Shown here: positions 36,613 through 54,934 of the stretch, in pieces
How positions within the stretch are numbered: position 1 is the first letter of the stretch
How the letters are laid out: every line of letters begins with the position of its first letter
Assembly (NCBI GenBank): GCA_029944565.1
Contig: GCA_029944565.1_4115.1
DNA from: a phage
Direction: 5' to 3' (one strand)
DNA length: 64,000 bases
Translations under genes and position numbers: made by a program
Notes under the pieces: generated by a model
The model's database searches: none
Seen by the model: the letters and a program-made list of their open reading frames with translations, nothing else
What the model was told of the DNA's origin: nothing

Positions 36613-36620
36613 CCACCAGC
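36613..36620. other. Chi octamer (CCACCAGC, complement of GCTGGTGG)
   Basis: exact 8-mer in intergenic DNA. Confidence 0.5.
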
Positions 36621-36652
36621 AGATAGTTACTCACCGTTATTAACTATATATT

Positions 36653-36732
36653 TTAGATACACCTATGCACCCTGTGGGCTAGTTTTTGTCTATGCGTATA
36701 TAGTACTAAAGGAGCGGACCGAAGTCAACTCC
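36653..36732 (-). promoter_or_regulatory. conserved intergenic element, copy 1 (promoter TTGACT-17-TACTAT inside UUCG hairpin, then conserved core)
   Basis: core ...tgcaccctgtgggct... at 36653-36681; hairpin ggagcggac-cgaa-gtcaactcc at 36711-36732. Confidence 0.5.
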
Positions 36733-36751
36733 TTTTTTTATTCTTTTTTTG

Positions 36752-36952
36752 TTAGATGATTCTCCAATCATCAACGATCATGGTAAGATACCGAACCAGT
36801 GATTCGAGTGATTCGTGTTCTCGATAGTCTGCCGCTCCACCAGCGGTACAAGTACAGCCGATTAAGCCGTTTTGTAGTTCCTGGATCTTTACGTCGATCT
36901 GGTTGGCTTTAGCTTCTTTCAGTACTTCAACCAGGGCGATAGCGATAGACAT
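36752..36952 (-). CDS. hypothetical protein
   Basis: 66-aa ORF; SD ggag. Confidence 0.55.
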   Translation of the reverse strand: MSIAIALVEVLKEAKANQIDVKIQELQNGLIGCTCTAGGAADYREHESLESLVRYLTMIVDDWRII

Positions 36953-36974
36953 AATGTTTTACTCCAAACTATTG

Positions 36975-37035
36975 GCGGGAGAACTATTCCCCCGCTCTAT
37001 GTAAAACATTATACATTACTGGTTAGTACTGTCAA
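36975..37035 (-). promoter_or_regulatory. early promoter (TTGACA-16-TATAAT) plus leader hairpin
   Basis: perfect hexamers; hairpin gcgggagaactattcccccgc. Confidence 0.7.
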
Positions 37036-37041
37036 ATAGTT

Positions 37042-37299
37042 TTATGAAATATCTTCGATGTAGTCGGCCCATTTCATTTTTTCAGTACTGTCAATGGCTA
37101 CCGGATTATTTGGATCAAACCATTCACCATTCCCGCAATACATACCCACGCCAGCGGTAGTATATCCATCCTGGGCCGTATTCCATGACATTGCACGATA
37201 GATATGGCCTTTAATTGGTGTTAGTACTGGTAACGTTTTATGGTCTTCTACGTAGGCCATAGCTTGAGGATTTACCCGATATTGTGTGAACTGTTCCAT
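37042..37299 (-). CDS. hypothetical protein
   Basis: 85-aa ORF. Confidence 0.55.
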   Translation of the reverse strand: MEQFTQYRVNPQAMAYVEDHKTLPVLTPIKGHIYRAMSWNTAQDGYTTAGVGMYCGNGEWFDPNNPVAIDSTEKMKWADYIEDIS

Positions 37300-37327
37300 T
37301 ATGTTTCCCCTTGTAGTTAGTAAAGTT

Positions 37328-37356
37328 ATTACATCAGTACTATCAAGCTATGTCAA
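37328..37356 (-). promoter_or_regulatory. early promoter (TTGACA-17-TGTAAT)
   Basis: hexamers on minus strand. Confidence 0.45.
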
Positions 37357-37375
37357 TAGTACTGAAATAAAACTT

Positions 37376-37600
37376 TTAGATTAGATTATTGATGCCGTTG
37401 ATGGTAGACTCGCTTTCTTCTTTCTCCCATTGGCGGTAGTACTTCCATGCTTCATGATATGTGGCGATTAGTTCATCTTTTTGATCCTGAGTACATGCCA
37501 GTACTGAATCACGGTGAGCGGTGTTATAGATAGAATCGAATGATTTCTTCTCTTCTGCCAGGTTAGCTACTTCCCGCATCAGTTCATCAAAGTTAGCCAT
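37376..37600 (-). CDS. hypothetical protein
   Basis: 74-aa ORF; SD aaggag. Confidence 0.6.
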   Translation of the reverse strand: MANFDELMREVANLAEEKKSFDSIYNTAHRDSVLACTQDQKDELIATYHEAWKYYRQWEKEESESTINGINNLI

Positions 37601-37618
37601 TTTATTACTCCTTTTAGT

Positions 37619-37675
37619 GGGGGAGGATATCTCCCCCTATGCAAAACATTATACTTTGTTTTAGTTATTATGCAA
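37619..37675 (-). promoter_or_regulatory. early promoter (TTGCAT-16-TATAAT) plus leader hairpin
   Basis: hairpin gggggag-gatat-ctccccc. Confidence 0.65.
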
Positions 37676-37931
37676 GTACTTTTTTCATATAAAGATTATA
37701 TTCTACACCGCCGTAACCTTCTACGATGATATGTTTTGCGTTATCACGTTTGCACATAGTGAAACCGTTGTTGATGTGTTCTGCATTTTCCAGGGCGACA
37801 TCACCGATAGCGGCACATACGGCACTAATAACAGTATTCCGCAAAGTACTGGTATCATTAGCGGTCATAGTAGTTTGCAGTACTACGTTGTCGTATACGT
37901 GTGCATTGATAGTGATTTCGATAGTGTTCAT
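37668..37931 (-). CDS. hypothetical protein
   Basis: 87-aa ORF; SD aggag. Confidence 0.6.
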   Translation of the reverse strand: MNTIEITINAHVYDNVVLQTTMTANDTSTLRNTVISAVCAAIGDVALENAEHINNGFTMCKRDNAKHIIVEGYGGVEYNLYMKKVLA

Positions 37932-37949
37932 GGTGTATCTCCTGGACTG

Positions 37950-38010
37950 GCGGGAGAACTATTCCCCCGCTCTATGTAAAACATTATACGTTAATCTAAC
38001 TACAATGCAA
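37950..38010 (-). promoter_or_regulatory. early promoter (TTGCAT-16-TATAAT) plus leader hairpin
   Basis: same architecture as 36975..37035. Confidence 0.65.
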
Positions 38011-38017
38011 GTACTTT

Positions 38018-38209
38018 TTAAATTTTATTTCCGATATAGTCCGGTCTATTCTTTTCGGTCATACGCTTTGCTAATGTTTGCATATGGCTTATTGCGTTTA
38101 ATGTGTCTTCCTCCAGGGATGAATCAACATAATCAGGATCATTCTTCACCTTGCAATGATTATGATAGCGTAGTACTGCCAGTACTTTTTTAACTTCTTC
38201 TACTGTCAT
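38018..38209 (-). CDS. hypothetical protein
   Basis: 63-aa ORF, ATGA-coupled to upstream gene. Confidence 0.5.
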   Translation of the reverse strand: MTVEEVKKVLAVLRYHNHCKVKNDPDYVDSSLEEDTLNAISHMQTLAKRMTEKNRPDYIGNKI

Positions 38210-38478
38210 AATAAGTACCCCACTTCGTTAGCTTTCAGGTTAGTATCAATCATCAGTGGATTTTTGTAGTTCACAAAACGATTAGTTTTCTCGATAGCGA
38301 ATCCCATATAATCCAGCTTACTAACAGTACATTCATTCTTAAAAACTTCTTTCGCTGCATCGATGGCTGATTGCATGGATAACCGACCATCTAAATTAAT
38401 GTTTCCAAATGATCCACCAGCAGAAGTAGGATTACCGTTCATATCTTTAATGATCATAGTAGCGGAGTAGCTGGACAT
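38206..38478 (-). CDS. hypothetical protein
   Basis: 90-aa ORF. Confidence 0.6.
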   Translation of the reverse strand: MSSYSATMIIKDMNGNPTSAGGSFGNINLDGRLSMQSAIDAAKEVFKNECTVSKLDYMGFAIEKTNRFVNYKNPLMIDTNLKANEVGYLL

Positions 38479-38500
38479 AATTTTGTTTCCTTTTAGTATC

Positions 38501-38559
38501 GGGGAGAACTATTCTCCCCTTGATGTAAACTATTATACAGTACTGATATACTTTGTCAA
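38501..38559 (-). promoter_or_regulatory. early promoter (TTGACA-16-TATAAT) plus leader hairpin
   Basis: hairpin ggggagaa-ctat-tctcccc. Confidence 0.7.
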
Positions 38560-38565
38560 ATACTT

Positions 38566-38973
38566 TTATTCGCCCATATAGATTAAGTTATCATCGCCTA
38601 CATAGGGATCGCAAACGTTGATTTCTTCGCAGTACTTCGTGAATACATCGCCATAGTGACCTAAACCACGATCCCAAAAACCAGTTCCGTGACCTTCGCG
38701 GGTAAGGAACAGATCATGACCAGCTTGCTCATAACCGTAATCAATAAACATACCGCGAACTACTTCCAGATCATTACCGTGTTTCTCAATGAAGCGAGAA
38801 CATGCAATCACCGCCGCTTGACGTGCTTCATCAGATAACTCATAATCTTCCAGGTAATCGCCGTTATCATTATGTACAGTACTGAATTGCATAGCTTCAA
38901 TGTAAGCTACAACCATTGCAGCATGATTTTTATCGTTAGTGATGTTCCGAGCGAGATTAGTAGTAGTAGACAT
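38566..38973 (-). CDS. hypothetical protein
   Basis: 135-aa ORF. Confidence 0.6.
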   Translation of the reverse strand: MSTTTNLARNITNDKNHAAMVVAYIEAMQFSTVHNDNGDYLEDYELSDEARQAAVIACSRFIEKHGNDLEVVRGMFIDYGYEQAGHDLFLTREGHGTGFWDRGLGHYGDVFTKYCEEINVCDPYVGDDNLIYMGE

Positions 38974-38994
38974 GATTTTATTCCTTATTGTATT

Positions 38995-39053
38995 GGGGAG
39001 AACTATTCTCCCCTTGATGTAAACTATTATACAGTACTGATATACTTTGTCAA
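38995..39053 (-). promoter_or_regulatory. early promoter (TTGACA-16-TATAAT) plus leader hairpin
   Basis: near-identical copy of 38501..38559. Confidence 0.7.
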
Positions 39054-39056
39054 TAC

Positions 39057-39278
39057 TTAATTACGTTTAAAATGATATGTGCCTTTATCATCCTGTACGC
39101 CCCACACTGATTTACCATCAACACCAGTGAAACCGGATTGTAATTCAATATGGAAACCATTATTATCAACTACAAAAACTTTTTTATTTTCATCCCGATA
39201 ACATTGATATTCTGAATCAACATTAAAGGCCGCATCATTCAGAAGATTGGAAGCGTAAATGCAAGTCATTGTAGTCAT
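39057..39278 (-). CDS. hypothetical protein
   Basis: start MTTMTCIYAS; track ORF extended through leader hairpin. Confidence 0.55.
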   Translation of the reverse strand: MTTMTCIYASNLLNDAAFNVDSEYQCYRDENKKVFVVDNNGFHIELQSGFTGVDGKSVWGVQDDKGTYHFKRN

Positions 39279-39301
39279 GATTTTATTCCTTATTCTTTGA
39301 G

Positions 39302-39360
39302 GGAGAACCATTTCCCCCTCTCGATATAAAACATTATACTTGATTCTAAGTACAATGCAA
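39302..39360 (-). promoter_or_regulatory. early promoter (TTGCAT-16-TATAAT) plus leader hairpin
   Basis: hexamers and hairpin gggagaaccatttccccctc. Confidence 0.65.
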
Positions 39361-39402
39361 GTACTTTTTTAAAAATAGTTTTCAGTACTGAATACTTATA
39401 TA

Positions 39403-39487
39403 ATAGATACATTTATGCACCCTGTGGGTCAGTGAGCTATCTCTCAATGAATATATAATAGCAAAGGGACTGACCGAAGTCAATCCC
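39403..39487 (-). promoter_or_regulatory. conserved intergenic element, copy 2 (promoter TTGACT-17-TATTAT inside UUCG hairpin, then conserved core)
   Basis: core at 39403-39432; hairpin gggactgac-cgaa-gtcaatccc at 39465-39487. Confidence 0.5.
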
Positions 39488-39501
39488 TTTTTTAATCTTT
39501 T

Positions 39502-40086
39502 TTATCGTGTTATAGTTACGGCTTTTACATCCCGCTTTTTATAGTACTGATTCCAGATATTGCGGGTTAAACCGTAATCAAGTACTTTAATAAGGCCGTT
39601 GCGATCCTGGCCGATATTCTGTTTTCTGATATCTCTTATCGTTAGTGTTGACAGTGTATCATCAACGTGTTGTAGTGCATCAGCAAAGCGGTGCTGGCGT
39701 TCAATTGCATTACGTTTAATATTGTACTTTAATTCGTTGCACGCGTTAACGTGCTTTACACTGCCTTTGCTTGCAGTACTCAACCGATCCATAACGATAA
39801 ACATATTATCAGGATCGCTTAAATGCATATGCACTTTAGCAAAGTACTGTTTCAATTGAGGGCGGTCATAGTCTAAAAAATTCCATACCTTACATTCAGT
39901 TTCATTTTGTTCTACACCCGCATCACAATTGGCGACCTTAATCACTAACCGATCATTTAAAGCGAAAACTATACGGGAAGATCCCGCCCCGATGATCTCC
40001 AGGCCAGCTAACCGACAAGCTGAAAGGATCTCTTTGTTGGTTTCCATTTCTGACAGTGTACGGATGAATTTAGTATAATTACGCAT
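39502..40086 (-). CDS. protein kinase-like protein (putative)
   Basis: glycine-rich loop IGAGSSRIVF then VIKV; catalytic-loop-like NIGQDRNGLIKVLDYG; start MRNYTKF with SD aaggag. Confidence 0.4.
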   Translation of the reverse strand: MRNYTKFIRTLSEMETNKEILSACRLAGLEIIGAGSSRIVFALNDRLVIKVANCDAGVEQNETECKVWNFLDYDRPQLKQYFAKVHMHLSDPDNMFIVMDRLSTASKGSVKHVNACNELKYNIKRNAIERQHRFADALQHVDDTLSTLTIRDIRKQNIGQDRNGLIKVLDYGLTRNIWNQYYKKRDVKAVTITR

Positions 40087-40114
40087 TGCATGTTCTCCTT
40101 GAGTTAATGAAACT

Positions 40115-40143
40115 ATATTACAGTACTTTACTATCAATTGCAA
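40115..40143 (-). promoter_or_regulatory. early promoter (TTGCAA-17-TAATAT)
   Basis: hexamers on minus strand. Confidence 0.5.
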
Positions 40144-40360
40144 CTACTTTTTTAACATTAACGGCGTGGATCACTTCCTTAGTGTTTTTAGTACTGAATA
40201 CTTTCGCCGCTCCTTGTTCGACCGTGATACGATAGCGACCATTAACATCAACCATATTAATAAAGTCCGGCGTGCTGAATGGTGTTGTTTTACATTTCAG
40301 TACTGTTAACAATTCCACCAGCGATGTAGTTTCTTTGATACGTTTTTCTAAAGTAATCAT
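40118..40360 (-). CDS. hypothetical protein
   Basis: 80-aa ORF. Confidence 0.55.
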   Translation of the reverse strand: MITLEKRIKETTSLVELLTVLKCKTTPFSTPDFINMVDVNGRYRITVEQGAAKVFSTKNTKEVIHAVNVKKVVAIDSKVL

Positions 40361-40389
40361 TTTGTTTTTCCCCGTGTTGGTATGTACAT

Positions 40390-40418
40390 ATAGTACTAAA
40401 ACATTTGAGTACTGTCAA
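40390..40418 (-). promoter_or_regulatory. early promoter (TTGACA-17-TACTAT)
   Basis: ~60-bp block duplicated at 40640-40694. Confidence 0.55.
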
Positions 40419-40637
40419 TTAGATAATTGCATATTTCTTTAAAGATAATGCGTCTTGGGTTGGCTGATACTCAATGCCGTTACCGTTATCTACTTTAACT
40501 AATAAACCTTTGTCAATTAGTTTTTTAATAGTCCTTTGGCCTTGTTGAAAATTGGTAAAATGTGAATCATTACGAAAGGTATAACCGTGCTTAACTGCTT
40601 CATCAATAGTTTTCTTTTCGATTTTAGATAATTTCAT
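40419..40637 (-). CDS. hypothetical protein
   Basis: start MKLSKIEKK; track ORF extended upstream. Confidence 0.55.
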   Translation of the reverse strand: MKLSKIEKKTIDEAVKHGYTFRNDSHFTNFQQGQRTIKKLIDKGLLVKVDNGNGIEYQPTQDALSLKKYAII

Positions 40638-40665
40638 TTTGTTTCTCCCGTGTTGGTATGTGTAC

Positions 40666-40694
40666 ATAATACTAAAACAATTGAGTACTGTCAA
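40666..40694 (-). promoter_or_regulatory. early promoter (TTGACA-17-TATTAT)
   Basis: duplicate of 40390..40418 block. Confidence 0.55.
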
Positions 40695-40945
40695 CGTGAT
40701 ATTAGTTTTATTTTCTTATTATATTGTTGGTGTTCATATAGGTTTATCTTTCCTGTGTTCTCAATTACTATTCTGTTGTTAGTGTCTACATCGATTACAC
40801 GCAGTTTTCCGTTGCTTAACTTCCTTGGTAATAGGTTACCATTAATAAACTCATTAGCAAGCTGTACGGCCTTTGTGATGATTCTCTGTGGTGCTTTATA
40901 GTGTACCCGCAAGATATTATCTTTAGATAGTTGTACCTTAATCAT
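40691..40945 (-). CDS. hypothetical protein
   Basis: 84-aa ORF. Confidence 0.55.
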   Translation of the reverse strand: MIKVQLSKDNILRVHYKAPQRIITKAVQLANEFINGNLLPRKLSNGKLRVIDVDTNNRIVIENTGKINLYEHQQYNKKIKLISR

Positions 40946-40959
40946 TTTAGTTTATCCTA

Positions 40960-40986
40960 TAAAAAAGGCGGGAACTGATCCCGCCG
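40960..40986 (-). terminator. rho-independent terminator
   Basis: hairpin ggcggga-actga-tcccgcc followed by UUUUUU on minus strand. Confidence 0.55.
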
Positions 40987-41007
40987 TGTTGTTAGTACTG
41001 CAAGTTA

Positions 41008-41403
41008 TTAGATAACCTGGCGGCGTTTACTGTATACTGTTACACGATTACCCTTACGGTCGTGTCGGATCTCTTTCTGGTTGCGTACCAGTTCACTTGG
41101 ACGCTTAAGGTTTGCCAGGTGATCCGCGTGAGTCCAAGCGGTATGGTTTGTCTGTACTTTGATATCAGAATCAGCGATAAATTCATCTTGTGCGTTAAGT
41201 ACTGCCGCCAGTAAATCCGCTCGTTTTAGTTCTGCTGCTGTTAGTACTGGCTCCGGTGAATTCACGATATCAGAGATTTCTTTGAACTGTACGGCCCAGC
41301 GTTGACCTTTCGGTGCATCTTTGCCCATGTCTTTAAATGCTGCTCCTTCCTCGCGTGCAACAATACGGGCAGCTTCACGGGTAGCGTAGAATTTAGTAAT
41401 CAT
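41008..41403 (-). CDS. hypothetical protein (paralog of 52725..52991)
   Basis: shared YATREAARIAAR, FKDMG, DRKGNRVTVY; start MITKFYATRE. Confidence 0.6.
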   Translation of the reverse strand: MITKFYATREAARIVAREEGAAFKDMGKDAPKGQRWAVQFKEISDIVNSPEPVLTAAELKRADLLAAVLNAQDEFIADSDIKVQTNHTAWTHADHLANLKRPSELVRNQKEIRHDRKGNRVTVYSKRRQVI

Positions 41404-41447
41404 GGTATACATCCTATTAGTTGAGTTAGTACTACAAGTTAGAGTCT

Positions 41448-41476
41448 ATTATAAAGTACTATCTGGGCAATGTCAA
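41448..41476 (-). promoter_or_regulatory. early promoter (TTGACA-17-TATAAT)
   Basis: perfect hexamers. Confidence 0.65.
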
Positions 41477-41498
41477 ATAGTACTTTAAATGGATTCTA

Positions 41499-41822
41499 TT
41501 ACATGTCTTTCTTACGTTTTACATCGTTGTATCGAACTGTTATTTCTTTGTTAATCTCTTTTTCGATGCGGTGAATAACTTTTTCTTTCGGGTTGAAACC
41601 TATAACGGTTTCTTTAATGATCTCCAAGCCCGTGTATTCGCCTTGTGTGCCGTAACCGTATGTAAAGGTTTCATGTCCCAGGTCTTCCCAACGATCACCA
41701 ATTAACGCAGACACGTAGCAAGAGTGGTAAGTATTGCCGTGTGAATCAGTCCACCGATTAACTTTAATGTCAAAGGAGGTTACAATTTTCAGTTCTACTT
41801 TCTGGGCAAGGATCATAGCCAT
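41499..41822 (-). CDS. hypothetical protein (paralog of 48459..48782)
   Basis: shared RWTDSxGNTYHSC, FTYGY, DVKRKKD; start MAMILAQ. Confidence 0.6.
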   Translation of the reverse strand: MAMILAQKVELKIVTSFDIKVNRWTDSHGNTYHSCYVSALIGDRWEDLGHETFTYGYGTQGEYTGLEIIKETVIGFNPKEKVIHRIEKEINKEITVRYNDVKRKKDM

Positions 41823-41844
41823 TTTTATTTCTCTCTCTTTGTTA

Positions 41845-41907
41845 GGAGGGGAACCGTTTCCCCTCACTTGATGTAAACTATTATACAGTACTAAGATACT
41901 TTGTCAA
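41845..41907 (-). promoter_or_regulatory. early promoter (TTGACA-16-TATAAT) plus leader hairpin
   Basis: hairpin gaggggaaccgtttcccctc. Confidence 0.7.
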
Positions 41908-41910
41908 TAC

Positions 41911-42093
41911 TTATTTTTTGGAAAGTTTACGCATTAATTCTACGCTTTCTTGTGAACGTTTTGCTACCTGGCAAGCTGCATGGACAGTAAACATTTTTGT
42001 ATAGTCTGACGGTTTGCCACCGAACCGAGCGGCACGTTCACGGGCACTTGGAACTAATACGATTTCTTTCTTACAGATAGTGCATTTAGCCAT
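41911..42093 (-). CDS. small Cys-containing hypothetical protein
   Basis: 60-aa ORF MAKCTICKK... Confidence 0.5.
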   Translation of the reverse strand: MAKCTICKKEIVLVPSARERAARFGGKPSDYTKMFTVHAACQVAKRSQESVELMRKLSKK

Positions 42094-42113
42094 TTTTATT
42101 TCTCTCTCTTTGT

Positions 42114-42176
42114 TAGGAGGGGAACCATTCCCCCTCTCGATGTAAACTATTATACAGTACTAAGATACTTTGTCAA
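42114..42176 (-). promoter_or_regulatory. early promoter (TTGACA-16-TATAAT) plus leader hairpin
   Basis: near-identical copy of 41845..41907. Confidence 0.7.
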
Positions 42177-42179
42177 TAC

Positions 42180-42455
42180 TTAATTATTGTAAATGTCGTG
42201 AATAGTGATAAAGTTTTTACGACCGTAAACCTGCAAATCAATATCAATGTAGTGCTTATCTAGTACATCCTCGACGCTTAACGCGGTGTCGTGGATATCT
42301 TCGTAGAATTGAGGATCTACAATCTTGCTTAAGTCATCCGGCGTTAACTCATCGTTAAGCCGTTGAACCGCCTGGATATCTGCTTCACGTTTCCAGTCTT
42401 CCAGGTTAGTAGTCAGTACTTGTTCGATTTCGTTAGCTGTCAGTAGAATCCGCAT
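42180..42455 (-). CDS. hypothetical protein
   Basis: 91-aa acidic ORF. Confidence 0.6.
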   Translation of the reverse strand: MRILLTANEIEQVLTTNLEDWKREADIQAVQRLNDELTPDDLSKIVDPQFYEDIHDTALSVEDVLDKHYIDIDLQVYGRKNFITIHDIYNN

Positions 42456-42488
42456 TTTAATGTTTCCTTATCAGTGGTTGATGTAAGT

Positions 42489-42516
42489 ATTATACTCGTT
42501 TACTTTCTATTGTCAA
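42489..42516 (-). promoter_or_regulatory. early promoter (TTGACA-16-TATAAT)
   Basis: proximal of three tandem promoters. Confidence 0.6.
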
Positions 42517-42604
42517 ACTATTTTATCAGGGGAGGTTTTCTTATGTCTTACTCCTGGACTACTTAACGGGGTTACTTGTTTCGTTCCCCGTCCTGATGTA
42601 AAAT

Positions 42605-42632
42605 ATTATACTTGATTCTAAGTACAATGCAA
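42605..42632 (-). promoter_or_regulatory. early promoter (TTGCAT-16-TATAAT)
   Basis: second tandem promoter; 70-nt leader with hairpin acgggg-N14-ccccgt. Confidence 0.55.
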
Positions 42633-42662
42633 GTACTTTTTAAAAATAGTTTTCAGTACTAG

Positions 42663-42670
42663 CCACCAGC
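42663..42670. other. Chi octamer (CCACCAGC)
   Basis: exact 8-mer next to conserved element. Confidence 0.5.
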
Positions 42671-42675
42671 AAACA

Positions 42676-42755
42676 ATAGATACATTTATGCACCCTGTGG
42701 GCTGATTTGTTTCTATGCGTATATAATAGCAAAGGGACTGACCGGAGTCAATCCC
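42676..42755 (-). promoter_or_regulatory. conserved intergenic element, copy 3 (promoter TTGACT-17-TATTAT inside hairpin, then core)
   Basis: core at 42676-42704; hairpin gggactgac-cgga-gtcaatccc. Confidence 0.5.
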
Positions 42756-42769
42756 TTTTTCAATTATTT

Positions 42770-43178: not shown

Positions 43179-43195
43179 AAGCTGTACTCCTTATA

Positions 43196-48378: not shown

Positions 48379-48458
48379 TTTACTATCCTCTTAAGTTGAT
48401 TTAATTTCTTTCCCCTATGCAGACACTGTATCAAAGTATCTGCATAAAGTAAAGCTAA

Positions 48459-48782: not shown

Positions 48783-48825
48783 TTTAGTATTCCTTAAATT
48801 AATATGTGTCGTCTTGATAAAATCT

Positions 48826-48854
48826 ATTATGCCAGTACTATCAAACTATGTCAA
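48826..48854 (-). promoter_or_regulatory. early promoter (TTGACA-17-CATAAT)
   Basis: hexamers on minus strand. Confidence 0.55.
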
Positions 48855-48873
48855 TAGTACTGTGATAATATTT

Positions 48874-49086
48874 TTACTTACTTTCTTTCGCTGCTTTATA
48901 TGTTGCCACTGCCATAACCACATCAGCACGAACAAAGTTTTTAACCGTGTCACTGTAATAATTGATCGCATCATCTATATCTGCGAACGTCCGATACATA
49001 CCGCACCAAGATACTTTATAACCTTCTTTCACTTCTGCCAGTTTAACGATAGTCTTGTTAACTTTGATTTTAGTAATGATAGCCAT
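48874..49086 (-). CDS. hypothetical protein
   Basis: start MAIITKIKV; track ORF extended through leader. Confidence 0.55.
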   Translation of the reverse strand: MAIITKIKVNKTIVKLAEVKEGYKVSWCGMYRTFADIDDAINYYSDTVKNFVRADVVMAVATYKAAKESK

Positions 49087-49105
49087 TTTAGTTTCCTCAT
49101 TATCA

Positions 49106-49164
49106 GGGAGAACCATTTCTCCCCTTGATGTAATGTATTATACTTTATTCGATTTACTTTGCAA
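49106..49164 (-). promoter_or_regulatory. early promoter (TTGCAA-16-TATAAT) plus leader hairpin
   Basis: hairpin gggagaaccatttctcccc. Confidence 0.65.
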
Positions 49165-49173
49165 GTACTTTTT

Positions 49174-49401
49174 TTAATTTAATTCATCCAGGCAAAGGAT
49201 ACGCTCAACGCCCAAATCAGTTAAACTAATCGACGGCACTTGATAGGTTTCAATGTATGCTACACTTGCCCACTGACCGAACTCATTAACGGCCCAGGTA
49301 TTCATTGCATTTTGCAATTCCGCACCTGCCTTGTTAGTAATGACTGCAACTACTTGTTCGTTGCCAGTAGTACCAGATACGCGAGTAATGATAATAGCCA
49401 T
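49174..49401 (-). CDS. hypothetical protein
   Basis: start MAIIITRVSG. Confidence 0.55.
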   Translation of the reverse strand: MAIIITRVSGTTGNEQVVAVITNKAGAELQNAMNTWAVNEFGQWASVAYIETYQVPSISLTDLGVERILCLDELN

Positions 49402-49421
49402 TGTTTTGATTCCTTTGATTT

Positions 49422-49484
49422 GGAAGGAGAACCGTTTCCCCCTCTCGATGTAAAACATTATACGCTAATCTCTTAATCGTGCAA
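49422..49484 (-). promoter_or_regulatory. early promoter (TTGCAC-16-TATAAT) plus leader hairpin
   Basis: hexamers and hairpin ggagaaccgtttcccc. Confidence 0.6.
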
Positions 49485-49549
49485 GTACTTTTTATTACTT
49501 TTTGCAAAATACTTTAAACGCTCTCAATCGCATTCTAACGACCTTAACG

Positions 49550-49557
49550 CCACCAGC
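49550..49557. other. Chi octamer (CCACCAGC)
   Basis: exact 8-mer; partner in opposite orientation at 49612. Confidence 0.5.
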
Positions 49558-49611
49558 TAGGGCGATGTATCAGATAATCAGTTTAATGCGTTAGAATCGA
49601 TTCTAGGCGGT

Positions 49612-49619
49612 GCTGGTGG
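49612..49619. other. Chi octamer (GCTGGTGG)
   Basis: exact 8-mer. Confidence 0.5.
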
Positions 49620-49635
49620 ACTGGAATACTACAGA

Positions 49636-49666
49636 CACAAAAAAGCCCACTGTTTAAGGTGGGCTA
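49636..49666 (-). terminator. rho-independent terminator
   Basis: hairpin agcccac-tgtttaag-gtgggct followed by UUUUUUGUGU on minus strand. Confidence 0.65.
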
Positions 49667-49686
49667 GTGATTCAGTACTTTAATTG

Positions 49687-50169
49687 TTATGCTTCAACTT
49701 TGCGATGAGCTTCGATCCATTCCTCGCGAGTCATACCGCTTTCTTTGATAGCGTCCAGTACTACCGCAATGCAGTTACCGCGTACAGGAATCATATGTTC
49801 TTCCCCGTTATCAAGTACTACAGTAACACGTTCTTGAATCCATTTTTTAGGTTTAGATTCTGGCTTATCTTCACCATACTTAACCGCCAGGGCTTTATGT
49901 GCCATTTCTACAACTACTTCCAGATCCAATCCAGCCACCGCCGCCTGGATACTTTCGATTGTTGCTTGCAGTTCGGCTTCACGGGCTTTTTTCTGTTCTT
50001 CCAGTTCTGCTACCTTTTTGGCTTGCAGTTCTTTAGCTTCACTGTACGCAATGTTAAAATTGTTGCGTACTGCTTTCATGGTATCGTTATCCAGGTCAGC
50101 CAACAATTCAGCAGCAATAACAGTATCGTTTGAAATCAGTGCTTTCAGGAATGATTTTACATTAGCCAT
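49687..50169 (-). CDS. hypothetical protein with central coiled-coil-like segment
   Basis: start MANVKSFLKAL with SD gagga; Ala/Glu/Lys-rich heptad-like middle. Confidence 0.6.
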   Translation of the reverse strand: MANVKSFLKALISNDTVIAAELLADLDNDTMKAVRNNFNIAYSEAKELQAKKVAELEEQKKAREAELQATIESIQAAVAGLDLEVVVEMAHKALAVKYGEDKPESKPKKWIQERVTVVLDNGEEHMIPVRGNCIAVVLDAIKESGMTREEWIEAHRKVEA

Positions 50170-50292
50170 TTTATAAATCCTCAATTAAAGTTTAGTTTAC
50201 GTTTATTAGTGTATCAAAGTTTTATCGACGTGTCCAGTTTTTCGTTCGACTTACTGGCGGTCTACTTAGTGCTCCCCGTCTTGATGTAATAC

Positions 50293-50320
50293 ATTCTACG
50301 CCTTTTTGTGGTAATGTCAA
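50293..50320 (-). promoter_or_regulatory. promoter (TTGACA-16-TAGAAT) with ~110-nt leader
   Basis: leader starts ...catcaagacgg... like other conserved-core transcripts. Confidence 0.5.
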
Positions 50321-50369
50321 CTACTATTTTAAAACTATTTTTAAAGTATGCAGTACTACGATAATACAA

Positions 50370-50401
50370 AAACAAAAAAGCCCACTGTTTAAGGTGGGCT
50401 A
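50370..50401 (-). terminator. rho-independent terminator (identical copy of 49636..49666)
   Basis: same hairpin agcccactgtttaaggtgggct plus U-run. Confidence 0.65.
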
Positions 50402-50417
50402 GTGATTCAGTACTATA

Positions 50418-50717
50418 TTATAAACAGTTAATTACTCCGGTGTGCGTTACTTTCTCAGTATCCATAACCGTGACCGATCCACGCTTAGTACTTACATCGT
50501 AATAAATTGTCGTGCTACCTTTTTCGTCTTCTTCATGGAACGGGCCGCTTTTAAATGCTTCTGGCTGGATCTCTAAATCCTTTAAAACAATCTCGCCAGT
50601 ACTTTCATCTGTCATCGCAACAGTGCACTGAATGAATTTTTCACTACTTACATCTAACGACGCATTAACAGCGAAAGAGGAAACAGATAAAGCCAGGGCG
50701 ATGATTGCAATTTTCAT
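50418..50717 (-). CDS. secreted/periplasmic protein (predicted signal peptide)
   Basis: N-terminus MKIAIIALALSVSSFAVNA with AxA-type cleavage site. Confidence 0.55.
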   Translation of the reverse strand: MKIAIIALALSVSSFAVNASLDVSSEKFIQCTVAMTDESTGEIVLKDLEIQPEAFKSGPFHEEDEKGSTTIYYDVSTKRGSVTVMDTEKVTHTGVINCL

Positions 50718-50728
50718 TTGATTATCCT

Positions 50729-50796
50729 TAGTTACCAGGGGGAACCGCTCCCCCGTGCGATGTAAAATATTGTACAGTACTAAAAACTAATTGCAA
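50729..50796 (-). promoter_or_regulatory. early promoter (TTGCAA-16-TACAAT) plus leader hairpin
   Basis: hairpin ggggga-accgc-tccccc. Confidence 0.6.
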
Positions 50797-50801
50797 GTAC
50801 T

Positions 50802-51038
50802 TTATGATTTTTTATAAAACATTTCGGCAGTAATATTTTTACCCGTTGGTTGTACTTTATCCAGAATTTTTTGATGCCCTGGCCGTCCAAATGAATATGA
50901 TCCGTAAACCGTAAACCAGTAGTTACCCTCAGTGTTTACATGTACAGCACAATAGGGAACGCCCCGCGATTCATCACCAATAAAGTGTGATACCGTTCCC
51001 GTTACATTAGCAGACGTTGATTTGATTTGTTCAAGCAT
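50802..51038 (-). CDS. hypothetical protein
   Basis: 78-aa ORF. Confidence 0.55.
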   Translation of the reverse strand: MLEQIKSTSANVTGTVSHFIGDESRGVPYCAVHVNTEGNYWFTVYGSYSFGRPGHQKILDKVQPTGKNITAEMFYKKS

Positions 51039-51058
51039 TTTCTTATTCCTTAGTTACC

Positions 51059-51114
51059 AGGGGGAACCGCTCCCCCTATGCAAAACATTATACGCGTTTA
51101 AAAACTAATAGCAA
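51059..51114 (-). promoter_or_regulatory. early promoter (TTGCTA-16-TATAAT) plus leader hairpin
   Basis: duplicate of the 50729..50796 block. Confidence 0.6.
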
Positions 51115-51147
51115 GTATTTTAATAAAAAGTATTTGAAAAATAATTG

Positions 51148-51176
51148 TTGACAACTGCATCCAGTACTGGCATAAT
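51148..51176 (+). promoter_or_regulatory. plus-strand promoter (TTGACA-17-CATAAT)
   Basis: hexamers read on plus strand; drives conserved-core transcript. Confidence 0.55.
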
Positions 51177-51182
51177 TACTAC

Positions 51183-51275
51183 ATCAAGACGAAACAGTCA
51201 CTAACCCACCGGGTGCCGAGATCCGTCTATTAAATGATTCAGTACTTAACAATAAAGGGGATCAATCGATCCCCT
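51183..51275 (+). ncRNA. candidate small RNA carrying the conserved promoter-proximal core
   Basis: no ORF; GAC-gaaaca-GTC hairpin then ACTAACCCACCGGGTGC; ends at hairpin ggggatc-aatc-gatcccc. Confidence 0.35.
51248..51275 (-). terminator. candidate rho-independent terminator
   Basis: same hairpin read on minus strand is followed by UUUAUUGUU after stop of 51281..51502. Confidence 0.45.
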
Positions 51276-51280
51276 ATGTA

Positions 51281-51502
51281 TTACTTAGTAAGGTATAAAC
51301 AGAAGTCACCTTTATTTGCTACGCCGCCAGTGTAACGCGATGAATAGTTAGAAACGTCCTGGACTTCTGCTATTACCAGTGTATCATCATTCAATTCGTC
51401 GCAGAAGCAAACGGCTGGATCTTTTACGCCGATCTTGTCGGCATGTTCCCGCATAGATTTAACCAGTGCTTCCAGTTGAGAAAGAGTAGTGATATTAGCC
51501 AT
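51281..51502 (-). CDS. hypothetical protein
   Basis: start MANITTLSQ; track ORF extended through leader. Confidence 0.55.
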   Translation of the reverse strand: MANITTLSQLEALVKSMREHADKIGVKDPAVCFCDELNDDTLVIAEVQDVSNYSSRYTGGVANKGDFCLYLTK

Positions 51503-51521
51503 TGTATTTTCCTCATTACCA

Positions 51522-51580
51522 GGGAGAACCATTTCTCCCCTCTATGTAAACTATTATACAGTACTGAAAACTAATTGCAA
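51522..51580 (-). promoter_or_regulatory. early promoter (TTGCAA-16-TATAAT) plus leader hairpin
   Basis: hairpin gggagaaccatttctcccc. Confidence 0.65.
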
Positions 51581-51586
51581 GTACTT

Positions 51587-51775
51587 TTAATTAAATTCCA
51601 TAAAATCATTCTCAACGTGCACAACAATTTGATTGTTTTTAAAGTCCGCAGCGAACTCGATGCAATCATAAACCGCTTTTTGTGTTACAATGCTATGAGT
51701 ACCAATCGGATTAATAGGGGATTGAATTGTTTCAATCTCGTTCCCTTGCTCATTAACAATTAAAATATTAAACAT
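51587..51775 (-). CDS. hypothetical protein
   Basis: 62-aa ORF; SD aggag. Confidence 0.5.
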   Translation of the reverse strand: MFNILIVNEQGNEIETIQSPINPIGTHSIVTQKAVYDCIEFAADFKNNQIVVHVENDFMEFN

Positions 51776-51813
51776 CGCTGTTACTCCTGGGTAGTGTTAA
51801 CTCGATATAAAGT

Positions 51814-51841
51814 ATTATACGCCTTTATTGCTTAGTGTCCA
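51814..51841 (-). promoter_or_regulatory. early promoter (TGGACA-16-TATAAT)
   Basis: hexamers on minus strand. Confidence 0.5.
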
Positions 51842-52038
51842 GTACTTTTTAAAACATATTCATAAACACTACGCACATCATTGATCATCGCCTGGCGGTT
51901 AGCAGGTAACGCACCAGGATCGCCACTATCCCAGGCATTGATAAAACTCCCCAAATCATGAAAGATTTTATTCTGTAAGCCGATTAACTGCAATTCTTTT
52001 TCTTCAAGCTCTTTGATACGGTCAATTAAAAGACTCAT
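51832..52038 (-). CDS. hypothetical protein
   Basis: start MSLLIDRIKE with RBS ctgaggattatcta identical to next gene. Confidence 0.5.
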   Translation of the reverse strand: MSLLIDRIKELEEKELQLIGLQNKIFHDLGSFINAWDSGDPGALPANRQAMINDVRSVYEYVLKSTGH

Positions 52039-52055
52039 TAGATAATCCTCAGTAC

Positions 52056-52337
52056 TTAATTGTAAGATCCGCAACGGTTACAATAGTGCCCGTCTTCCTC
52101 GTCAACGAATTGACCGACGAAATTATCTACTTTCTCTTTGAGATTCTGATAATTGTTTTCAACTTCCTTTAGACGTTCCTGGTAGTATTCCAGGGCTTGC
52201 ACATACGCCGCCTCAGCCGTTTTCGCTCTTAAGGCTAAATTCATGCCACGCGTTTCATCGTACATCCAAAAGCCATCGGTGCACTCACTGATTGACAATG
52301 ATTTGGTTAACACTTTATAGTCAATTACTTTGCTCAT
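52056..52337 (-). CDS. hypothetical protein
   Basis: start MSKVIDYKV; C-terminal CNRCGSYN. Confidence 0.5.
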   Translation of the reverse strand: MSKVIDYKVLTKSLSISECTDGFWMYDETRGMNLALRAKTAEAAYVQALEYYQERLKEVENNYQNLKEKVDNFVGQFVDEEDGHYCNRCGSYN

Positions 52338-52393
52338 TAGATAATCCTCAGTAAAGGCGGGAACCACACCCGCCATTGATTCAGTACTGAATG

Positions 52394-52633
52394 TTACATT
52401 CCAACCATTGCAGCACGGATCGCCGTAGTGCTATACTTGAATCCGTCCGGTGTTGTAGTAGTACCGTTGGCTTTTAATCTGCGGTACATACATTGGGCCG
52501 CAATATCTTTAGTTTTACATTGTGCGATGCAACTTTGAGCAAGCCGATATAATGACTCACCGTTATTAATCCACAATGAAACATTCCAATGAGTTTTGTT
52601 TTTGTGCCCGTTGTAAGTTTTAGTAGTAGCCAT
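52394..52633 (-). CDS. hypothetical protein (paralog of 53077..53316)
   Basis: shared GHKNKTxWNVSLWINN and TPDGFKYSTTAIRAAMVGM. Confidence 0.6.
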   Translation of the reverse strand: MATTKTYNGHKNKTHWNVSLWINNGESLYRLAQSCIAQCKTKDIAAQCMYRRLKANGTTTTPDGFKYSTTAIRAAMVGM

Positions 52634-52655
52634 TTTTAAATCCTCGTTTAATTGA

Positions 52656-52717
52656 GCGGGAGAACCATTCCCCCGCCTCGATATAAAGTATTATACGCTT
52701 TTAAACTTAGTTTGCAA
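52656..52717 (-). promoter_or_regulatory. early promoter (TTGCAA-16-TATAAT) plus leader hairpin
   Basis: hairpin gcgggagaaccattcccccgc. Confidence 0.65.
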
Positions 52718-52724
52718 GTACTTT

Positions 52725-52991
52725 TTATTCAAGTACTGCGATCTTTTTAATACGGTACACGGTCACGCGGTTGCCCTTTCGGTCGAGCTTTATTTCTACC
52801 ACTCGACGCGATACACTATCAGGACTTTTCAACGCCGCTAACCAGTACTGTAATGATCTGGCGGTACTACGCTTTACAATGGCCCAACGTTTACCACGTT
52901 CCGATTGTACGCCCATATCTTTAAACGTTGCCCCGTCCTGGCGTGCGGCGATCCGAGCTTGTTCACGCGTCGCAAAATACTTAATATTCAT
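52725..52991 (-). CDS. hypothetical protein (paralog of 41008..41403)
   Basis: shared FATREQARIAAR and DRKGNRVTVY; start MNIKYFATRE. Confidence 0.6.
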   Translation of the reverse strand: MNIKYFATREQARIAARQDGATFKDMGVQSERGKRWAIVKRSTARSLQYWLAALKSPDSVSRRVVEIKLDRKGNRVTVYRIKKIAVLE

Positions 52992-53022
52992 GCTGTTGCC
53001 CTTATCGTTGGTGTATGAATAA

Positions 53023-53060
53023 AACACTATTATAAAGTACTATCGCAAAAAATGATAGTA
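53023..53060. promoter_or_regulatory. perfect palindrome AGTACTATC-N9-GATAGTACT next to a -10-like TATAAT
   Basis: 9-bp inverted arms upstream of 52725..52991; candidate operator. Confidence 0.35.
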
Positions 53061-53076
53061 CTTTAAATCTATTCTA

Positions 53077-53316
53077 TTACATTCCAACCATTGCAGCACG
53101 GATCGCCGTAGTACTGTACTTGAATCCGTCCGGCGTTTTATCTTGTCCAGTCTGTTCTAAAAATAGCATCATATGACGGGCCGCATCATTGCGATTAGTG
53201 TTAGCGGCAATAAAGTCCTGGGCCAACCGGTATAATGATTCATCGTTATTAATCCAAAGGCTTACATTCCATTGAGTTTTGTTTTTGTGACCTAAGAACA
53301 TTTTTGATTTAGCCAT
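53077..53316 (-). CDS. hypothetical protein (paralog of 52394..52633)
   Basis: identical C-terminal 19 aa. Confidence 0.6.
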   Translation of the reverse strand: MAKSKMFLGHKNKTQWNVSLWINNDESLYRLAQDFIAANTNRNDAARHMMLFLEQTGQDKTPDGFKYSTTAIRAAMVGM

Positions 53317-53337
53317 TTTTAAATCCTCTTAATTATA

Positions 53338-53396
53338 GTGGGGAACTATTCCCCACCTGATGTAAAACATTATACGCTTTTAAACTTAGTTTGCAA
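53338..53396 (-). promoter_or_regulatory. early promoter (TTGCAA-16-TATAAT) plus leader hairpin
   Basis: hairpin gtgggga-actat-tccccac. Confidence 0.65.
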
Positions 53397-53410
53397 GTAC
53401 TTTTTAAAAC

Positions 53411-53773
53411 TTATTCGTAAATCTTGCCACTGTCAGCCCATACCAGGAAACGAGGCATATTATCCCATGCATCTTGCTTTAAATTTAAACCGTGTAATAC
53501 TTCTGTACTTTCCATTCCTGGTACTGGTTTACTATACACCGCAAATAGTTCACCCATATACTGATAAGCCATCGTTAAATCACTGGCGATCATCTTATGG
53601 ATCATCGCATCAAGCATCACGGTAGCGGCGTATTGTTCACGCTTAAGCGGTAACATTGCAATAAGTTCCCGATAAGCTGAAATGTGAATTTTTACCGTTT
53701 CAGCCGGAAGACCTTTCATCTCTTCACGGAAGTTAACCAGGTTAGCAATAATTTTATTGATTTGAGTCGCCAT
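53411..53773 (-). CDS. hypothetical protein
   Basis: start MATQINKII; track ORF extended through leader. Confidence 0.6.
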   Translation of the reverse strand: MATQINKIIANLVNFREEMKGLPAETVKIHISAYRELIAMLPLKREQYAATVMLDAMIHKMIASDLTMAYQYMGELFAVYSKPVPGMESTEVLHGLNLKQDAWDNMPRFLVWADSGKIYE

Positions 53774-53797
53774 CGTTTTCATCTCTCTTACAGTGTA

Positions 53798-53856
53798 GCG
53801 GGAAGTGTTCCCGCTCTCGATGTAAAACATTATACGCTTTTAAACATAGTTTGCAA
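53798..53856 (-). promoter_or_regulatory. early promoter (TTGCAA-16-TATAAT) plus leader hairpin
   Basis: hairpin agcggga-agtgt-tcccgct. Confidence 0.65.
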
Positions 53857-53886
53857 GTACTTTCTACATGTACTTTTAAAATAGTT

Positions 53887-53975
53887 TTCTTTCTATATAG
53901 GAGTACTATTATTCAGTACTGCAACCATCCAGGGGAACTATCTTTCTATATAGGAGTACTATGATTCAGTACTGA
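53887..53975. repeat. two ~33-bp direct repeats (tctttctatataggagtactatNattcagtactg)
   Basis: copies at ~53889-53920 and ~53942-53975. Confidence 0.6.
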
Positions 53976-54136
53976 ATCAATCCACCAAATCATCCCGATA
54001 CCCCGTAAAACGGCCTCAGACGCATTCTAACGCATTAATACACCTAAGCTATACATTTGCACCATTCCAATCATTCCAGGGCTTTACGGGCCGTTTAAAC
54101 GCGTTAAATTATTTTCAATTATTTTGTTTTTAGCTA

Positions 54137-54164
54137 TTGACTCAGTACTGAAAAAGCGTATAAT
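54137..54164 (+). promoter_or_regulatory. plus-strand promoter (TTGACT-16-TATAAT)
   Basis: hexamers on plus strand; followed by conserved-core transcript. Confidence 0.55.
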
Positions 54165-54351
54165 TACTATATAGACGCGAGAAAGCGGATACCCCAGGGG
54201 GTGGGAAGATCCGTCCAAAATTCAAGATATAAAAAAAGGATAGACTCCCGCACCCTAGCAGGTTAACGCACTTTCTCAGTACTGAATTATAGTACCATAG
54301 TCCGGCCCAGGATGGCAAGCAAATTAATTAAAACTTTTTTCATCCAGGGTA

Positions 54352-54380
54352 TTGCTTTATTTTTCCAGTACTGCTATAAT
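54352..54380 (+). promoter_or_regulatory. plus-strand promoter (TTGCTT-17-TATAAT)
   Basis: followed by GTC-gagaaa-GAC hairpin and CCCACCGGGTGCATAGTTGTATCTA core. Confidence 0.5.
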
Positions 54381-54477
54381 ATTTTTATCAAGTCGAGAAA
54401 GACTCTAGCCCACCGGGTGCATAGTTGTATCTAAAATTCAGTACTAGATTATTTTTTAAAATTATTCATCCAAGCGG

Positions 54478-54506
54478 TTGACATACCAGGCGAAAACGGG
54501 GATAAT
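54478..54506 (+). promoter_or_regulatory. plus-strand promoter (TTGACA-17-GATAAT)
   Basis: hexamers on plus strand, no ORF downstream. Confidence 0.5.
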
Positions 54507-54599
54507 GATTCCAGATTCAGAAAAATCTAACTCCAGATACTGCGGGGAAACCATCCCCACGCGGTAGGGGAACTATTGGAAAAAATAAAATAAAAATTT

Positions 54600-54770
54600 T
54601 GATTTAGCCGTCTATACATCCAGACGTGTAACCATCTAGCCGTTTAGCCGTCCAAACGTCTAGCAGTACAGCCATCTAGAAATCTAGCCATCCAGCCGCC
54701 TAGAGGGATAGCCATCTTTACTTCCAGCCATCTGGAGGTCTAGACATCTCTACGTCTAAATTTAACCTAG
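54600..54770. repeat. iteron-like cluster of short GC-rich repeats (CCATCTAG / CGTCTA / TCTAGC)
   Basis: at least 10 degenerate units with CTAG cores in 170 bp, GC-rich against AT-rich background. Confidence 0.6.
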
Positions 54771-54914
54771 GGTTACTACACCCAAAATCCGTCAGTACTA
54801 TACCATAGATCTATCTTTTGAAAGGGAGTATTCAGTACTGCCATCATAGCCCTCACTATGTTACCCTAGGAGGATGAAGACTATCATGTAGTACTGAATA
54901 CTGTTAGGGGGAAT

Positions 54915-54934
54915 CCACCAGCACAAGCTGGTGG
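54915..54934. other. back-to-back Chi octamers CCACCAGC-acaa-GCTGGTGG
   Basis: perfect 8-bp inverted pair, Chi in both orientations. Confidence 0.55.

Follow-up and report, generated by a model that had tools for sequence, protein, structure and literature searches.

Over-represented E. coli-type Chi octamers in the predicted direct terminal repeat of an Asteriusvirus jumbo phage

The stretch analyzed here, which we call the window, comprises 64,000 nucleotides (nt) of phage DNA (GenBank assembly GCA_029944565.1, contig GCA_029944565.1_4115.1) taken as a whole, and the element under study is the Escherichia coli-type Chi octamer, GCTGGTGG. The window shares 92–99% identity with Asteriusvirus jumbo phages that were isolated on E. 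coli (PBECO4, 121Q, G17, vB_Ec-M-J and fEgEco12), which bears out the enterobacterial host proposed by a first-pass annotation of this DNA. Position 1 of fEgEco12 maps to window position 55511, and window position 35251 is the map point of fEgEco12 position 20993 and vB_Ec-M-J position 21525, where their direct terminal repeats (DTRs) end, and of position 1 of the G17 record. The matching region is annotated as a 21,525-bp DTR in the vB_Ec-M-J record. Terminal redundancies of ~20 kb were described for G17 (PMC6563267), and a 20,993-bp DTR was identified in fEgEco12 by PhageTerm and confirmed with restriction digests (PMC13070987); both DTR copies were identical when the whole fEgEco12 record was compared. 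By alignment, the segment 35251–55511 is the counterpart, base for base, of the DTR mapped in these relatives. Phage orientation is the reverse complement of the window, with the left genome end at 55511 and the right DTR boundary at 35251. All 11 Chi copies of the window lie within the DTR equivalent, and none was found in the remaining 43.7 kb.

The DTR equivalent carries an array of ~47 small open reading frames (ORFs), almost all of them with a near-consensus sigma-70 promoter of their own. In the interval 35600–55200, 38 promoter-like sites scoring at least 10/12 were found on the − strand, all directed rightward in phage orientation, and 12 of them are perfect TTGACA-N16/17-TATAAT promoters. 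This early-promoter array is unusually dense and resembles the pre-early DTR of phage T5. When the 47 ORFs were searched against PHROGs, the only matches to families with a named function were those of a GNAT acetyltransferase and a DksA-like zinc finger, plus a weak and secondary one to a family that carries the label DNA ligase. Families of unknown function accounted for the rest of the matches, and no match was obtained for 8 of the 47.

When both strands were counted, the exact octamer was present nine times on the − strand and twice on the + strand (Table 1). Seven copies are intergenic and four lie within small ORFs, where they are read as GCT-GGT-GGx (Ala-Gly-Gly) in three cases and as xxG-CTG-GTG-Gxx (Leu-Val) in one. 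The first-pass annotation had listed seven Chi sites, all in non-coding DNA and clustered in intergenic elements, with two inverted pairs. All seven are present and non-coding, and both pairs are real; the four copies that it missed (36837, 38414, 40315 and 43931, all on the − strand) are in ORFs, and neither the list nor the placement in intergenic elements stands for the full set, four sites being coding and none belonging to a dispersed repeat family. The G+C content is 37–40% across the Chi-bearing stretch (36.6–54.9 kb) and 30–35% in the flanks, rather than the ~33% assumed earlier. What had been overlooked is the decisive context: judged from the mapped termini of the relatives, the Chi cluster coincides exactly with the DTR.

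Table 1. Chi sites and sequence compartments of the window, with the start and strand of each Chi in phage coordinates.
Feature	Window position	Window strand	Phage coordinate (strand)	Context
Left-side unique DNA	1–35250
DTR equivalent, single collapsed copy	35251–55511	−		20,261 bp
Unique DNA abutting the right end	55512–64000
Chi	36613–36620	−	18892 (top)	Intergenic; the −35 element of promoter 36586–36558 lies 27 bp downstream
Chi	36837–36844	−	18668 (top)	In ORF 36752–36952 (phrog_14244 match); Ala-Gly-Gly; lost in 121Q
Chi	38414–38421	−	17091 (top)	In ORF 38206–38478 (phrog_8099 match); Ala-Gly-Gly
Chi	40315–40322	−	15190 (top)	In ORF 40118–40360; Leu-Val codons
Chi	42663–42670	−	12842 (top)	Intergenic; flanked by a terminator-like module and the next early promoter
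Chi	43931–43938	−	11574 (top)	In ORF 43843–44031 (phrog_33079 match); Ala-Gly-Gly
Chi	45394–45401	−	10111 (top)	3′ arm of an intrinsic-terminator-like hairpin (45391–45416)
Chi	49550–49557	−	5955 (top)	Intergenic; 54 bp from its partner at 49612; ~70 nt upstream of an early promoter
Chi	49612–49619	+	5893 (bottom)	Intergenic; active for left-end entry; 5.9 kb from the left end
Back-to-back pair, CCACCAGC-acaa-GCTGGTGG	54915–54934	+ (as read)		578–597 bp from the left genome end
Chi (pair member)	54915	−	590 (top)
Chi (pair member)	54927–54934	+	578 (bottom)	Active orientation for RecBCD entry at the left end

The excess of Chi in the window is genuine, with overwhelming statistical support. 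When the window was shuffled 100 times with dinucleotides preserved, the octamer occurred 0.32 times on average (maximum 2) vs. 11 times in the actual sequence. With the 20.3-kb DTR region alone, 1000 shuffles averaged 0.24 copies and never exceeded 4. Strand-specific Markov models of orders 0–4 expected a total of 0.2–0.5 copies, and 1.6 were expected at order 5. The Poisson probability of at least 11 copies ranged from 1e-11 to 2e-15 with the order 0–4 expectations and was 9e-7 with order 5. At orders 0–4 the phage top strand was expected to carry 0.1–0.5 copies and the bottom strand 0.04–0.08, vs. 9 and 2 observed, and each orientation is over-represented by itself (2 bottom-strand copies vs. 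0.04–0.11 expected). Overall, Chi in the DTR equivalent is ~30-fold above chance.

The enrichment is specific for the exact octamer. The 24 one-mismatch variants combined gave 2 matches in the DTR equivalent vs. 11 for Chi, and among octamers with at least six G/C positions Chi was the commonest, the runner-up reaching 5 copies. In fEgEco12, 10 of the 14 CTGGTG hexamers of the DTR are completed to a full Chi, vs. 14 of 172 in the unique DNA, and with an order-2 model Chi ranked first for over-representation among DTR octamers with at least four copies. These results bear on whether the octamer could have accumulated as a by-product of composition or codon usage, the G-rich coding strand and the higher G+C content of the DTR raising, without selection, an octamer that contains favoured codons (GCT, GGT and CTG). 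The G+C content of fEgEco12 is indeed 38.5% in the DTR vs. 35.5% in the unique DNA, three of the four coding Chi copies are Ala-Gly-Gly in favoured codons, the strand bias is accounted for by skew (see below), and Chi shows a modest 2- to 4-fold excess over Markov expectation in the unique part of fEgEco12 (orders 2–4; up to ~11-fold at order 0). Local models through order 4, however, expect at most 0.6 copies in place of 11, seven of the 11 copies are non-coding, and neither the one-mismatch variants nor any other GC-rich octamer is enriched in the same way. An origin in composition is close to refuted.

A recent acquisition of host-like DNA, bringing Chi along, would also raise the local Chi content, and the G+C content of the DTR exceeds that of the flanking DNA in all four lineages compared here. 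E. coli DNA has a G+C content of roughly 51%, far from the 38% of the DTR; the Chi density of the DTR is 2.5 times that of the host, its ORFs match phage-only PHROG families, and the octamers sit in phage promoter and terminator architecture. Host-derived DNA is thus contradicted as the source, and we give it next to no weight.

We then compared the distribution of Chi in related phages. In fEgEco12, each DTR copy has 12 Chi (0.57 per kb) vs. 24 in the 332.7-kb unique part (0.072 per kb), an 8-fold higher density, and no 21-kb stretch of the unique part contains more than 6. Its total is 36 Chi in 353.7 kb with one DTR copy counted (~1 per 10 kb). For the excess in the unique part given above, the observed/expected ratio of E. 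coli itself, 2.3 (Bobay et al.), serves as a reference. Within Asteriusvirus, the 21.5-kb DTR of vB_Ec-M-J has 9 top- and 2 bottom-strand Chi, with none in the adjacent 8.5 kb, and the ~20-kb DTR of 121Q has 9 and 1. Klebsiella phage fENko-Kae01, with an average nucleotide identity to fEgEco12 of ~29% (PMC13070987), has 12 top- and 2 bottom-strand Chi in a 19.7-kb DTR and 2 in the next 30 kb. Phage Muenster (Alcyoneusvirus) has 7 and 1 in a 20.0-kb DTR and none in the next 30 kb, and XbC2 (Mimasvirus) has 7 and 2 in its first 17.5 kb, a segment of high G+C content, and 3 in the next 32.5 kb. DTR-confined Chi enrichment therefore recurs in three other RaK2-like lineages, mostly in different local contexts, as judged from reading the flanks without alignment of their repeats to the window. 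In fENko-Kae01, for example, an inverted Chi pair lies at 484–503, 0.48 kb from the left end, with a loop different from that of the window; four Chi lie within promoter spacers, three of these Chi ending 2 nt before the −10 element; and a terminator like that at window position 45394 recurs at 19354 (ctggttaacGCTGGTGG) with changed stem bases. Selection on the octamer in this compartment is most strongly supported by this recurrence across lineages.

Two further comparisons proved uninformative. The recorded host of XbC2 is Xanthomonas, yet E. coli-type Chi is enriched in its DTR-like left end (1–17500). This Chi content, together with nearest relatives that without exception infect Enterobacterales, made the phage unusable as a host-switch control. 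Either it moved to its host recently, or that host has a RecBCD that responds to a similar signal. Chi sequences differ among hosts, that of Pseudomonas being GCTGGCGC. Searching IMG/VR for inverted pairs of this type (CCACCAGC-N4-GCTGGTGG) returned 46 contigs, nearly all of 5–90 kb and unrelated, with 121Q as the sole jumbo phage.

Two Chi clusters were also seen outside the DTR of fEgEco12. Six top-strand Chi lie in a block of replication and recombination genes (211.9–234.0 kb), and six bottom-strand Chi lie inside an array of RCC1-like paralogues (333.8–347.3 kb), with which they were probably copied.

The identity and number of the octamers, their statistics, their position relative to mapped termini, their orientation and their recurrence in other genera are observations from the sequences. 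That the octamers are selected Chi sites is well supported, on the basis of the over-representation, the specificity for the exact octamer and the recurrence in other genera.

The local contexts of the window sites are varied. The pair at 54915–54934 forms an 8-bp palindrome without mismatches around a 4-nt loop, for which a hairpin of −16.3 kcal/mol was computed; it sits in the 1.6-kb non-coding leader of the DTR and is kept in fEgEco12, vB_Ec-M-J and 121Q. The terminator-like hairpin that contains the Chi at 45394 folds with −21.7 kcal/mol (z-score −5.0). In 121Q the equivalent of the Chi at 49612 is altered to CCGTCAGC, and the Chi at 40315 is kept despite flanks just 85% identical. Nine of the 11 window sites are invariant in 4–5 Asteriusvirus genomes, the gains and losses being lineage-specific. 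No Chi octamer was found in any of the 19 direct-repeat families of the DTR, which are cassettes of a promoter and a 5′-untranslated region (5′-UTR) hairpin; carriage of Chi by a dispersed repeat or mobile element was ruled out on this ground.

If the octamer were bound by a different factor, for instance a phage early-transcription regulator or a packaging or host protein, its identity with Chi would be coincidental. The fENko-Kae01 copies in promoter spacers, the promoter-dense DTR whose promoters carry another conserved word (AGTACT), and the two Chi copies that form parts of hairpins are compatible with such a role. Against it, the window copies keep no fixed distance from promoters: the intergenic ones precede −35 elements by 27, ~33 or ~70 nt or belong to a terminator stem or the leader, and four are in ORFs. 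The prior for a chance identity of the top over-represented GC-rich octamer with the host Chi is ~1 in 33,000 strand-symmetric octamers, and the same octamer marks other RecBCD-using phages. We consider a different factor quite improbable.

Next to Chi, a ~95-nt repeated module was noted at 36654–36748 and 42677–42771, each copy just upstream of a Chi. It consists of a 12-bp hairpin, with a UUCG/UCCG loop and an embedded TTGACT, and after it TATTAT and a conserved AGCCCACAGGGTGCAT box; related hairpins lie at 39463–39490 and 46769–46796. An Rfam scan of the window, the module included, returned no matches. The module is a candidate terminator, promoter or small RNA.

RecBCD is established to read Chi from its 3′ side (PMC12315714), and the orientation of each site can be related to entry at either genome end. 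For entry at the right end, via the right DTR copy, the nine top-strand Chi are in active orientation; the first (36613 in the window) is 1.36 kb from the right genome end, and the others extend across the entire repeat. For entry at the left end, active-orientation Chi are met at 0.58 and 5.9 kb. Both inverted pairs face outward, so that from either side the first Chi met is in active orientation. The protection against RecBCD from either direction that the first-pass annotation envisaged would fit this pair geometry.

On these grounds, we propose, with a probability of about 0.72, that the octamers are genuine host Chi sites, accumulated by selection in the ~20-kb DTR of an E. coli Asteriusvirus jumbo phage, which would switch RecBCD from degradation to RecA loading at the genome ends. 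The exact sequence is present 11 times, the relatives were isolated on E. coli, and all tested enteric species use the same Chi octamer (PMC12315714). Every RecBCD and RecA step of the scheme, and the choice of the exposed end, is inferred from established RecBCD–Chi biology. The virion DNA is linear, and each end, with one DTR copy, would be a potential entry point. RecBCD entering at the right end would run against early transcription and meet the nine correctly oriented Chi, and from the left end it would meet the other two. At Chi, RecBCD would cease to degrade the 3′-ended strand and load RecA, and the early-gene repeat would thereby be spared. The surviving 3′ tail, still repeat sequence, could invade the other DTR copy and give rise to circles or concatemers by recombination-dependent replication, and a series of Chi would raise the odds of a switch before the repeat is lost. 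Most likely, then, the octamers act as Chi: at a blunt genome end, RecBCD would begin by degrading DNA and, before leaving the repeat, change over to RecA loading.

The sites could be real Chi and yet be selected for a different benefit, namely limiting, from the injected ends, the acquisition of spacers by CRISPR systems and other RecBCD-fed immunity, rather than aiding recombination or replication. In 2015 Levy and colleagues reportedly found that Chi bounds RecBCD-dependent spacer acquisition in E. coli. The geometry expected is the same, with Chi near both ends and inside the first 20 kb, and nothing in the sequence separates this benefit from RecA loading for recombination. CRISPR systems are silent in many E. 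coli strains, and we regard this benefit as unlikely to be the one selected.

Several points weigh against our proposal of Chi-directed RecA loading at the genome ends. First, fEgEco12 is annotated with a RecA/UvsX-like protein (g372) and SbcCD-like proteins (g337/g338), and g373 is annotated as a single-stranded DNA-binding recombination protein (all four are annotations only, outside the window). Surveys of lambdoid phages tie high Chi content mainly to phages without recombinases, and judged from the fEgEco12 annotations, the lack of a phage recombinase or RecBCD inhibitor that marks Chi-rich phages does not extend to this group. The PHROGs search with the 47 DTR ORFs gave no match to a Gam, Abc2 or gp5.9 family, a weak negative. 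Second, the genome ends may be protected by proteins, and either end could enter first. Third, variable columns were 9 of 88 in the octamers vs. 173 of 1320 in their flanks (p = 0.5); the flanks are likewise 87% invariant, and conservation within the genus has no power as a test of selection. Fourth, a strand bias of 9:2 is close to that expected from the G-over-C skew of the coding strand alone. The composition-predicted top:bottom ratio is 1.4:1 to 8:1 at orders 0–4 and 2–4:1 at orders 1–3; the bias was therefore dropped as a sign of orientation selection and is no independent evidence for selection on Chi. Finally, the DTR status of the present genome rests on homology to the mapped termini of the relatives, because the record holds one collapsed copy.

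The Chi content was compared with that of phages known to be Chi-rich. The density in the DTR equivalent (11 in 20,261 bp, 1 per 1.84 kb) is 2.5 times that of E. coli K-12 and similar to those of the RecBCD-dependent phages LLS (1 per 1.86 kb) and P1 (1 per 1.90 kb) (PMC12315714), a host-level density reached locally only. All window Chi cluster in the terminal repeat, likewise in three other lineages. According to PMC12315714, which cites Subramaniam and Smith (2022), P1 resembles the present phage in carrying the exact E. coli Chi at ~1 per 1.9 kb, concentrated in or near terminally repeated DNA, and in the proposed RecBCD–RecA recombination of the terminal repeats of injected linear DNA. 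In contrast to the present phage, P1 is temperate, has a 95-kb genome and is packaged by a headful mechanism with permuted terminal redundancy; the present phage is virulent, with ~350–380 kb, an exact 20-kb DTR and a high Chi density confined to it.

The LLS-type lambdoids lack a Rec module and have many terminally clustered Chi (Zheng et al. 2025; PMC12315714). Like the present phage, they and the Rec-minus lambdoids (Bobay et al. 2013) over-represent the host Chi and cluster it toward the RecBCD-open end, and in lambdoids, too, single Chi sites turn over while their number is maintained. Unlike it, they have no recombinase and show a bias of ~7:1 or higher for the active orientation, beyond composition; here, the annotations of relatives include RecA/UvsX-like and SbcCD-like genes, skew accounts for the bias, and both Chi orientations are found at the ends. 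T5-like phages were reported to over-represent Chi (Bobay et al. 2013). T5 is also virulent, with a long exact DTR (10.2 kb, pre-early genes) full of strong sigma-70 early promoters. In our own count, T5 has 2 Chi in the 10.2-kb DTR vs. 4 in the 101-kb unique DNA, a 5-fold higher density; both (8127 and 8689, top strand) are oriented for right-end entry. Two DTR sites in T5 compare with 11–14 here. We found no published statement that the Chi of T5 concentrate in the DTR. By analogy with P1, T5-like phages and LLS-type lambdoids, the Chi-loaded terminal repeat described here would be a new example of a known phage strategy.

Further features of the DTR were recorded alongside. A conserved 5′-UTR hairpin (GGGGAGAA-N4-TTCTCCCC) follows many promoters and precedes the ribosome-binding site (families D1–D6, 10–18 copies each). 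The AGTACT palindrome CAGTACTG occurs 40 times in the fEgEco12 DTR vs. 0.24 expected, and AGTACT occurs 142 times in the vB_Ec-M-J DTR vs. 14 in the next 8.5 kb; examples of CAGTACTG in the window are at 36565–36572 and 55127–55134. AGTACT is built into early promoters, either as AGTAC-TTGCAA at the −35 position or in the spacer of TTGACA-N8-CAGTACTG-TATAAT, and CAGTACTG may be the operator of an early-transcription regulator. The left 1.6 kb of the DTR (~53900–55511) is non-coding, with one perfect promoter (55146–55119) and, at ~54610–54760, a series of degenerate repeats that resemble GGCTAGAT/GGCTGGAT. Jumbo phages of Erwinia, Serratia, Klebsiella and ‘Xanthomonas’ with records that begin at this same position share conserved blocks of it, and the conserved left end may be a terminase recognition site or an origin. 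The GC skew of the + strand flips from −0.1 to +0.2 near 56 kb. The tandem small ORFs of ~60–80 aa at ~55800–64000, in the unique DNA abutting the right DTR copy, nevertheless stay on the − strand.

Full-text literature searches found no published account of Chi in jumbo phages or of Chi in DTRs, and the Asteriusvirus genome papers (PMC13070987, PMC6563267) mention neither Chi nor RecBCD. We tentatively suggest, as a possibility to which we give somewhat less than even odds, that Chi-loaded DTRs, a trait so far undescribed, characterize RaK2-like jumbo phages in general (at least four lineages) despite their own recombinases: they would recruit host RecBCD–RecA to the genome ends in the first minutes of infection, before phage recombination proteins are available, so as to rescue the early-gene repeat and initiate DTR-by-DTR recombination-dependent replication. 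If so, the right end, toward which early transcription runs, is predicted to be the end exposed to RecBCD, and perhaps the first into the cell.

The proposed role of Chi would imply that (i) the use of host Chi at DNA ends by phages extends from temperate and lambdoid phages to virulent jumbo phages developed for therapy; and (ii) the published rule that many Chi go with the lack of a phage recombinase is not absolute. It offers a concrete starting point for testing how a linear genome of 350 kb withstands RecBCD and becomes concatemeric. A local Chi cluster could also serve as a sequence-only marker for terminal repeats in collapsed jumbo-phage assemblies, and for an enterobacterial host.

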